Source: Escherichia coli O157:H7
Lineage (GTDB): Bacteria > Pseudomonadota > Gammaproteobacteria > Enterobacterales > Enterobacteriaceae
Direction: 5' to 3' (one strand)
DNA: 64,000 bases
Assembly: GCF_013167455.1 (NCBI RefSeq)
Contig: NZ_CP038328.1
The position numbers and the translations under genes were made by a program. The notes beneath the pieces are model-generated. The model was given only the letters and a program-made list of their open reading frames with translations. It searched no databases and had not been told where the DNA came from. Shown here one piece after another: positions 29,880 through 57,183 of this stretch (the first letter of the stretch is position 1; each line of letters starts with the position of its first letter).

Positions 29880-31019
29880 ATGAGCGCGGGAAGCCCAAAA
29901 TTCACCGTTCGCCGCATTGCGGCTTTGTCACTGGTTTCGCTATGGCTGGCAGGCTGTTCTGACACTTCAAATCCACCGGCACCGGTCAGCTCCGTTAATG
30001 GCAATGCGCCTGCACATACCAATTCTGGTATGTTGATTACGCCGCCGCCGAAAATGGGGACGACGTCTACAGCGCAGCAACCGCAAATTCAGCCGGTGCA
30101 GCAGCCACAAATTCAGGCTACTCAACAACCGCAAATCCAGCCAGTGCAGCCAGTAGCTCAGCAGCCGGTACAGATGGAAAACGGACGCATCGTCTATAAC
30201 CGTCAGTATGGGAACATTCCGAAAGGCAGTTATAGCGGCAGTACCTATACCGTGAAAAAAGGCGACACGCTTTTCTATATCGCCTGGATTACTGGCAACG
30301 ATTTCCGTGACCTTGCTCAGCGCAACAATATTCAGGCACCATACGCGCTGAACGTCGGTCAGACCTTACAGGTGGGTAATGCTTCCGGTACGCCAATCAC
30401 TGGCGGAAATGCCATTACCCAGGCCGACGCAGCAGAGCAAGGAGTTGTGATCAAGCCTGCACAAAATTCCACCGTTGCTGTTGCGTCGCAACCGACAATT
30501 ACGTATTCTGAGTCTTCGGGTGAACAGAGTGCTAACAAAATGTTGCCGAACAACAAGCCAACTGCGACCACGGTCACAGCGCCTGTAACGGTACCAACAG
30601 CAAGCACAACCGAGCCGACTGTCAGCAGTACATCAACCAGTACGCCTATCTCCACCTGGCGCTGGCCGACTGAGGGCAAAGTGATCGAAACCTTTGGCGC
30701 TTCTGAGGGGGGCAACAAGGGGATTGATATCGCAGGCAGCAAAGGACAGGCAATTATCGCGACCGCAGATGGCCGTGTTGTTTATGCCGGTAACGCGCTG
30801 CGCGGCTACGGTAATCTGATTATCATCAAACATAATGATGATTACCTGAGTGCCTACGCCCATAACGACACAATGCTGGTCCGGGAACAACAAGAAGTGA
30901 AGGCGGGGCAAAAAATAGCAACCATGGGTAGCACCGGAACCAGTTCAACACGCTTGCATTTTGAAATTCGTTACAAGGGGAAATCCGTAAACCCGCTGCG
31001 TTATTTGCCGCAGCGATAA
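29880..31019 (+). CDS. nlpD: lipoprotein NlpD (LysM, degenerate M23 peptidase)
   Basis: 379-aa ORF; lipobox LAGCS; PQIQ repeat tract. Confidence 0.9.
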
Positions 31020-53022: not shown

Positions 53023-55913
<2,891 letters not shown>

Positions 55914-55998
55914 CGGATTTTATCCTGTTATCAGTAGGGAAGATGTAGTTGTTATCAGTCGACGTGACGGAAAAATGCCGATGCTGAAACGGAATTAA

Positions 55999-56010
55999 GA
56001 AACCGGTTTC
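55999..56010. promoter_or_regulatory. palindrome GAAACCGGTTTC, candidate AscG operator (second imperfect copy at 56073..56086)
   Basis: 12-bp perfect palindrome with central CCGG in ascF-ascG divergent region; related tgtgaaaccggtcacc 70 bp away. Confidence 0.5.
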
Positions 56011-56169
56011 ACAAAATCATGAATAGTTGTAACCAAATGAGCAAGAGAGTTAATTGTTCATTTTTTATATTTGTGAAACCGGTCACCTGAATATTTTTCC
56101 CGCCGATTGCGCAAGGACAATCGGTAAACGGTGCAGTACACTGCGTTGATTGCGTGTAAAGGGATGAAA

Positions 56170-57183
56170 ATGATGACGACGATGCTGGAAGTGGCGAAGC
56201 GCGCCGGGGTTTCAAAAGCGACCGTTTCCCGCGTGCTTTCAGGTAATGGCTACGTCAGCCAGGAGACTAAAGATCGCGTGTTTCAGGCGGTAGAAGAGAG
56301 CGGTTACCGTCCAAACTTGCTGGCGCGCAATCTGTCGGCGAAAAGTACCCAGACGCTGGGGCTGGTAGTGACTAACACGCTTTACCACGGCATTTATTTT
56401 AGTGAATTACTGTTTCATGCCGCGCGAATGGCGGAAGAGAAAGGGCGGCAGTTGCTATTGGCAGATGGTAAACACAGCGCCGAAGAAGAGCGCCAGGCGA
56501 TTCAGTATCTGCTGGATTTGCGCTGCGACGCCATTATGATTTACCCGCGTTTTTTAAGTGTGGATGAGATCGATGACATCATTGACGCGCACAGTCAGCC
56601 GATAATGGTGCTTAATCGCCGCCTGCGCAAAAATAGCAGCCATAGCGTCTGGTGCGATCATAAACAGACCAGCTTTAACGCCGTGGCAGAGTTGATAAAC
56701 GCCGGGCATCAGGAGATTGCTTTTCTTACCGGCTCGATGGATTCCCCCACCAGCGTTGAACGTCTTGCCGGATATAAAGACGCGCTGGCGCAGCATGGTA
56801 TTGCGCTCAATGAAAAACTTATCGCTAACGGTAAATGGACGCCCGCCAGCGGGGCCGAAGGGGTAGAAACGTTGCTCGAACGTGGGGCTAAATTTAGCGC
56901 GTTAGTTGCCAGTAACGACGATATGGCGATAGGTGCGATGAAAGCGTTACACAAGCGCGGCGTAGCGGTGCCAGAGCAGGTGTCAGTTATCGGATTCGAT
57001 GATATCGCAATTGCCCCCTATATCGTTCCGGCGCTCTCCAGCGTAAAAATTCCGGTGACTGAGATGATTCAGGAAATTATTGGACGGCTGATTTTTATGC
57101 TCGATGGCGGGGATTTCTCACCGCCGAAAACCTTCAGCGGAAAACTGATCCGCCGCGACTCACTCATTGCTCTTTCGCGATAA
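56170..57183 (+). CDS. ascG: LacI-family repressor AscG
   Basis: ORF 56131..57183; start near MMTTMLEVAKRAGVSKATVSRVL giving about 337 aa; intact. Confidence 0.85.
   Translation: MMTTMLEVAKRAGVSKATVSRVLSGNGYVSQETKDRVFQAVEESGYRPNLLARNLSAKSTQTLGLVVTNTLYHGIYFSELLFHAARMAEEKGRQLLLADGKHSAEEERQAIQYLLDLRCDAIMIYPRFLSVDEIDDIIDAHSQPIMVLNRRLRKNSSHSVWCDHKQTSFNAVAELINAGHQEIAFLTGSMDSPTSVERLAGYKDALAQHGIALNEKLIANGKWTPASGAEGVETLLERGAKFSALVASNDDMAIGAMKALHKRGVAVPEQVSVIGFDDIAIAPYIVPALSSVKIPVTEMIQEIIGRLIFMLDGGDFSPPKTFSGKLIRRDSLIALSR

Follow-up and report, generated by a model that had tools for sequence, protein, structure and literature searches.

An AscG operator and a CRP site carrying an AscG half-site in the ascG-ascFB intergenic region of Escherichia coli

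Introduction

Two related, palindrome-like sequences lie between ascF and the divergently transcribed repressor gene ascG, and the question raised by this locus is which proteins bind them and what they imply for the control of the asc (arbutin-salicin-cellobiose) operon. In a first-pass annotation both sequences were taken for operators of the LacI-family repressor AscG, and the operon was expected to be repressed but inducible. Here, the sites, the surrounding genes and the orthologous loci of related bacteria were analyzed together with the published data on AscG and CRP. The region is very probably the known divergent asc control region, consisting of an AscG operator (site 1, O1) and an upstream CRP site (site 2), which in Escherichia contains an AscG half-site.

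Materials and methods

The stretch of DNA analyzed, in the following called the window, comprises 64,000 nucleotides of one strand, and all coordinates refer to it unless another sequence is named. For the ortholog scan one genome per species was used, and 80 loci encoding AscG relatives (99% to 66% identity) were obtained from Escherichia, Citrobacter, Enterobacter, Klebsiella, Raoultella, Kluyvera, Leclercia, Lelliottia, Aeromonas, Sodalis and other genera. Within E. coli, the asc region was matched in 4699 of 5426 complete genomes, the best matches being O157:H7 strains.

Results

The asc locus of the window has the order ascB and ascF on the minus strand, a 259-bp intergenic region (55914..56172) and ascG on the plus strand. 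The genes are:

53023..54447, minus strand: ascB, 6-phospho-beta-glucosidase gene; intact, 474 aa, 464/474 identical to K-12
54456..55913, minus strand: ascF, PTS EIIBC component for beta-glucosides; intact, 485 aa, 479/485 identical to K-12
56173..57183, plus strand: ascG, LacI/GalR-family repressor gene; intact, 336 aa, 331/336 identical to K-12 b2714

Pfam domains were found in all three products, namely the LacI HTH (E 1.8e-21) and Peripla_BP in AscG, PTS_EIIB and PTS_EIIC in AscF, and Glyco_hydro_1 (GH1) in AscB. Solved structures of AscG are available (PDB 3DBI and 3BRQ), and its residues 1-60, the DNA-binding domain, show no difference from K-12. The view that ascG is uninterrupted and that the operon is not insertion-activated was thus borne out, the intergenic region having the same length as in K-12 MG1655 and no insertion. 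The two intergenic regions differ by seven substitutions, four of which lie between the two sites. Both sites are base-for-base identical between the window and K-12, and the conserved TCTTG and cATGAT blocks described below are likewise free of substitutions; a single substitution falls within a proposed promoter hexamer, at the last, poorly conserved base of the -35.

Some further features of the locus were recorded. Ten of the 474 residues of AscB (53026..54447) are not those of K-12, and D27G, D68G, L97P, H140Q and F381L are non-conservative changes among them. The 5′ leader of ascF, the length of which varies widely among genera, contains a perfect 10-bp direct repeat (TGTTATCAGT) at 55926..55935 and 55950..55959, 24 bp apart. 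In the closest genome, that of O157:H7 DEC4E (NZ_CP038398.1, 1155607..1157154), the 901-bp query was matched in two pieces over 1548 bp, and the match carries an additional annotated 'PTS transporter subunit EIIC' fragment, which suggests that some 650 bp have been inserted in ascF or close to it. An IS621-family element adjoins ascG in strain WL164.

The two sites are located as follows:

55996..56013, no strand assigned: AscG operator O1 (site 1), 18-bp near-palindrome TAAGAAACCGGTTTCACA, with a perfect 12-bp palindrome and a published 14-mer inside
56072..56087, no strand assigned: CRP binding site (site 2), TGTGAAACCGGTCACC, reverse complement GGTGACCGGTTTCACA; one mismatch to the CRP core, with a ChIP-seq match

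The perfect 12-bp palindrome of site 1 was correctly recognized in the first-pass annotation at 55999..56010 (GAAACCGGTTTC). LacI-family operators are mostly even palindromes of 14-22 bp with a central CG, typically at a distance of 30-140 bp (Ravcheev 2014). O1 has this form, with the 12-bp perfect palindrome enclosed in the 18-bp near-palindrome and CG as the central dinucleotide, and with 91.5 bp from its centre to the downstream ascF ATG it falls in the usual distance range. The divergent, intact gene of the cognate repressor is adjacent to it. The 14-mer 55998..56011 reads, as its reverse complement TGAAACCGGTTTCT, exactly as the AscG binding sequence that Guharajan et al. (2021, Table S3, PMC8667592) list for PascF; in their study, AscG bound to this sequence repressed strongly at +1 and, when at -61 alone, had almost no effect. 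Genomic SELEX data of Ishida and coworkers are curated in RegulonDB; a literature search on asc promoter names and AscG boxes returned no relevant paper. Site 1 as the known AscG binding site and primary operator of ascFB is therefore supported, with binding and repression taken from the literature.

The 12-bp palindrome on its own is not beyond chance, as 18 perfect palindromes of this length are present in the 64-kb window and 20.6 ± 4.6 were expected from Markov-1 simulations. Copies of the motif with up to two mismatches number eight, compared to three expected; two of the eight are the sites themselves, and the other six were treated as chance occurrences. Chance does not account for the occurrence of the sites as a pair, for their location between the gene of a LacI-family protein and the operon it controls, or for their conservation.

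The imperfect second copy (tgtgaaaccggtcacc, 56072..56087) exists as previously described, 75 bp from site 1 centre to centre, except that the end coordinate given at that time, 56086, drops the last base (56087). Compared with TGTGA-N6-TCACA, site 2 has one mismatch, and only two matches of this quality occur in the window. The sole other one is TGCGACCACGGTCACA at 30563..30578. The 16-mer of site 2 is printed, as GGTGACCGGTTTCACA, for the CRP site of a high-confidence CRP ChIP-seq peak that ETEC H10407 shows in the ascG-ascF interval (PMC4287617), and ascF is among the known cAMP-CRP targets recovered by genomic SELEX (PMC3105977). Of the two LacI-family operators proposed earlier, site 1 consequently stands as a match to the published AscG site, and site 2 is primarily a CRP site, to which AscG may bind as well. 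In Escherichia the left half of site 2 together with the spacer (TGTGAAACCGG) forms a perfect AscG half-site in which the central CG is kept; the right half (GGTCACCTG) is a poor one. By calculation a CRP spacer would read AACCGG with a chance of about 1 in 4096, which makes an accidental origin of the AscG-like overlay unlikely. Any role of site 2 in repression is something we infer, because AscG alone at -61 was almost without effect. A second AscG target is reported from K-12, between prpR and prpB (locus 2945..3182). A scan of this interval found no full AscG palindrome, only AAGAAACCG and TGAAAC(G) four times, all in a stretch of about 50 bp, which suggests that AscG may bind or tolerate half-site-like sequences.

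A promoter for ascF was proposed from the sequence blocks conserved in 43 gap-free orthologous sequences, which in ascF sense have the order CRP site - AAAAAATG - TCTTG - 17 bp - cATGAT - TGTG[G/A]AACCGGTTTCC. The resulting features are:

56059..56067, minus strand: A-tract TAAAAAATG, in the conserved AAAAAATG block upstream of the -35 and downstream of the CRP site, approximately -58 to -50
56039..56044, minus strand: putative -35 of the ascF promoter, TTGCTC, from the conserved TCTTG block 17 bp upstream of cATGAT
56016..56021, minus strand: putative -10 of the ascF promoter, CATGAT, a conserved block at 17-bp spacing

The proposed hexamers match the consensus at 7 of 12 positions, and a consensus promoter and terminator scan of 55850..56250 gave nothing above threshold. 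With these conserved blocks as -35 and -10, transcription of ascF would start near 56009, the centre of site 1 would lie at about +5.5 and that of the CRP site at about -70.5. This predicted layout is compatible with AscG acting by steric occlusion and CRP as a class I activator, and it also agrees with the published repression by AscG at +1 but not at -61. The A-tract is a possible UP-element or alpha-CTD contact.

Conservation of the arrangement was assessed in the 80 orthologous loci. A divergent ascF homologue is present upstream of ascG in 79 of them. Citrobacter koseri NCTC10786 is the only locus in which the alignment of the AscF homologue starts at residue 53 and not at the N-terminus, and its ascF may be truncated or frameshifted. 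A match centred on AACCGGTT was found upstream of ascG in all 80 loci, where this motif served as the required anchor of the scan, so that the count tests presence in every locus and not invariance. The flanking positions 1 (T), 17 (C) and 18 (A) of the 18-mer, which are not forced by the anchor, are conserved in 79-81 of 81 sequences. The 18-mer consensus is T-[A/G]-n-G-[A/G]-AACCGGTT-[C/T]-CACA, and in Aeromonas O1 is a perfect 18-bp palindrome (TGTGGAACCGGTTCCACA).

The distance from O1 to the CRP-like site, determined for the 80 loci and the window (n = 81), is 75 bp in 44 sequences, 74 bp in 32, 73 bp in one and 65 bp in four, the last value corresponding to one helical turn less. At these fixed distances (73-75 or 65 bp) a CRP core with at most two mismatches is present in 79 of the 81 sequences and in 0.7% of shuffled windows. 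The CRP half-sites GTGA and TCAC/TCGC are conserved, and positions 6-9 of the spacer are free to vary, which is the pattern expected of CRP sites. The AscG-like spacer AACCGG was found only in the four Escherichia sequences, with near copies (AACCGA or AATCGA) in Kluyvera. While the distance between O1 and the CRP site is fixed, the ascF start codon lies anywhere between 27 and 94 bp from O1 among the loci, which indicates that the two sites are fixed to each other, and presumably to the promoter, but not to the coding sequence. From these sequence comparisons the ancestral design appears to be one AscG operator plus one CRP site, and the second AscG-like site would be a recent overlay in Escherichia.

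Within E. coli, 4537 of the 4699 records agree with the window over the full 44-mer surrounding site 2; for the 44-mer surrounding site 1, 2247 agree fully and 2451 have one mismatch. In the three one-mismatch records inspected, the site-1 mismatch is an A/G difference at 55998, the base that adjoins the 12-bp palindrome.

The two sites share GAAACCGGT, a 9-bp exact direct repeat spaced 76 bp start to start and 75 bp centre to centre. In addition, a repeat finder identified a perfect inverted repeat with 54 bp between its arms:

56002..56015, no strand assigned: left arm of the 14-bp perfect inverted repeat, ACCGGTTTCACAAA
56070..56083, no strand assigned: right arm of the 14-bp perfect inverted repeat, TTTGTGAAACCGGT

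In E. coli TUM1226 (NZ_CP135719.1), one of the 4699 records, the 54 bp between the arms (equivalent to 56016..56069 of the window) are present as the exact reverse complement. This inversion would turn the putative ascF core promoter towards ascG. Rather than phase variation, we take it to reflect a single template switch, recombination between the inverted repeats or an error of assembly.

Discussion

The sequences of the two sites, their identity to published AscG and CRP sites, their deep conservation at a fixed spacing and the intact genes on either side all lead us to regard the region with high confidence as the known asc control region described above. An AscG dimer at site 1, centred at about +5.5, would cover the predicted ascFB start and block RNA polymerase. 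CRP-cAMP at site 2, in a class I activator position at about -70.5, would place ascFB under catabolite control. AscG probably also binds site 2 as a weaker auxiliary site, where it would compete with CRP, cooperate with O1, or both.

How much of site 2 belongs to AscG is the point on which the alternatives differ. That both sites are essentially AscG operators acting together, perhaps through a loop of the intervening 75 bp, while the resemblance of site 2 to a CRP site is incidental, would account for the direct and inverted repeats common to both and for the low chance of an AACCGG spacer, and two AscG sites at ascFB are attributed to Ishida et al. (2009) by Meinhardt et al. (2012). The CRP half-sites, however, are kept in 80 of 80 loci, and the AscG-like spacer is confined to Escherichia and Kluyvera; the exact sequence of site 2 is occupied by CRP in vivo, and its right half does not match the AscG half-site. 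Meinhardt et al. (2012) also set results with a LacI-AscG chimera in contrast to the two-site arrangement at ascFB. A pair of operators with no true CRP site is accordingly considered improbable. At the other extreme, site 2 could serve CRP only, with no useful AscG binding and with repression through site 1 alone. Most genera have O1 and a CRP site without the AscG-like spacer, which suggests that a single operator is both ancestral and sufficient, and the near absence of a regulatory effect of AscG at -61 (PMC8667592) points in the same direction. Against it stand the two AscG sites credited to Ishida et al. (2009) by Meinhardt et al. (2012), the AscG half-site matched at 8 of 8 positions in every Escherichia sequence, and the reported prpB upstream target region with nothing but half-site-like TGAAAC motifs, which suggests a tolerance of AscG for such sequences. 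We consider an exclusive use of site 2 by CRP rather unlikely, though it deserves to be kept in mind.

Two more explanations concern the repeats as such. Perfect 12-bp palindromes occur in the window at the rate expected by chance, which taken alone would suit functionless chance features; the exact identity to published AscG and CRP sites and the fixed spacing conserved in 80 of 80 loci across genera leave this explanation practically no probability, and conservation and published binding data have already refuted it. Alternatively, ascFB could be turned on and off by inversion of the 54-bp promoter segment between the inverted repeats. Perfect 14-bp repeats do flank the proposed -35 and -10, and the exact inversion is present in one complete genome, TUM1226, but the inverted orientation is limited to this single record among 4699, the segment is short (54 bp), nothing implicates a recombinase, the repeats can be put down to protein binding sites that overlap, and an assembly error or a one-off template switch would explain TUM1226 equally well. 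Such a switch is highly improbable, and it was rejected on the frequency of the inversion.

For the asc control region as preferred here, with O1 and a CRP site that AscG may share, a more specific proposal is made tentatively. In Escherichia, and partly in Kluyvera, the ancestral CRP spacer may have been re-tuned to AACCGG, giving a composite CRP/AscG element that would let AscG dislodge the activator CRP as well as cover the start; through the 14-bp inverted repeat so formed, the 54-bp core promoter could occasionally be inverted, as in TUM1226. If true, the composite element would be a lineage-specific second mode of repression layered on a conserved single-operator design.

With regard to the state of the operon, the earlier expectation holds in one part. 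Repression agrees with the intact ascG and with the DNA-binding domain identical to that of K-12. The operon may be inducible, but in K-12 it is the classic cryptic state that has ascG intact, and AscG is stated to have no known effector (Meinhardt et al. 2012). Activation in K-12 is attributed to an IS186 insertion in ascG (Hall and Xu 1992). By comparative genomics, cellobiose-6P has been assigned as AscG effector (Ravcheev et al.). Unmutated K-12 and B strains show ascB-dependent growth on cellobionic acid (Desai et al.), which is the one hint of natural asc expression.

For the annotation it follows that the second 'operator' is to be corrected to a conserved CRP site, which would place the operon under catabolite control in addition to repression by AscG, and that the intact ascG denotes the classic cryptic state and not a demonstrated inducibility. 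In evolutionary terms, O1 and the CRP site at fixed spacing appear ancestral across the sampled Enterobacteriaceae and Aeromonas loci, and the second AscG-like site appears recent in Escherichia. Beyond a correct annotation the significance is small: the roles of both sites in E. coli asc are already known, and the window carries the experimentally characterized region with both sites unchanged.

The closest known system is the ascG-ascFB region of E. coli K-12 (Hall and Xu 1992; Ishida, Kori and Ishihama 2009), with which the window shares the genes, the intergenic length, both sites and the AscG DNA-binding domain, and from which it differs by the intergenic substitutions listed above. Class I CRP-dependent promoters of the lac type resemble the ascF promoter in their upstream CRP core, weak -35 and -10 and a LacI-family operator over the predicted start; they differ in that the ascF CRP site would be at about -70.5 rather than -61.5, in that AscG, with 336 aa, is not known to have the tetramerisation helix of LacI, and in that the Escherichia CRP site carries a repressor half-site. 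A CRP site at -70.5 is found at malT. The idealized palindrome TGAAACCGGTTTCA we take to be the operator of PtxS, a LacI-family regulator of the 2-ketogluconate regulon in Pseudomonas; site 1 differs from it at one end position, and organism, regulator and regulon are different. A literature search matched TGAAACCGGTTTCA verbatim in two Pseudomonas papers on carbohydrate regulation. The E. coli bgl and chb operons are similar to asc as cryptic or conditionally silent operons for a PTS and a phospho-beta-glucosidase, which can be activated by mutation and depend on CRP. Control of bgl, however, is exerted by H-NS silencing and BglG antitermination and not by a LacI-type repressor with an operator.
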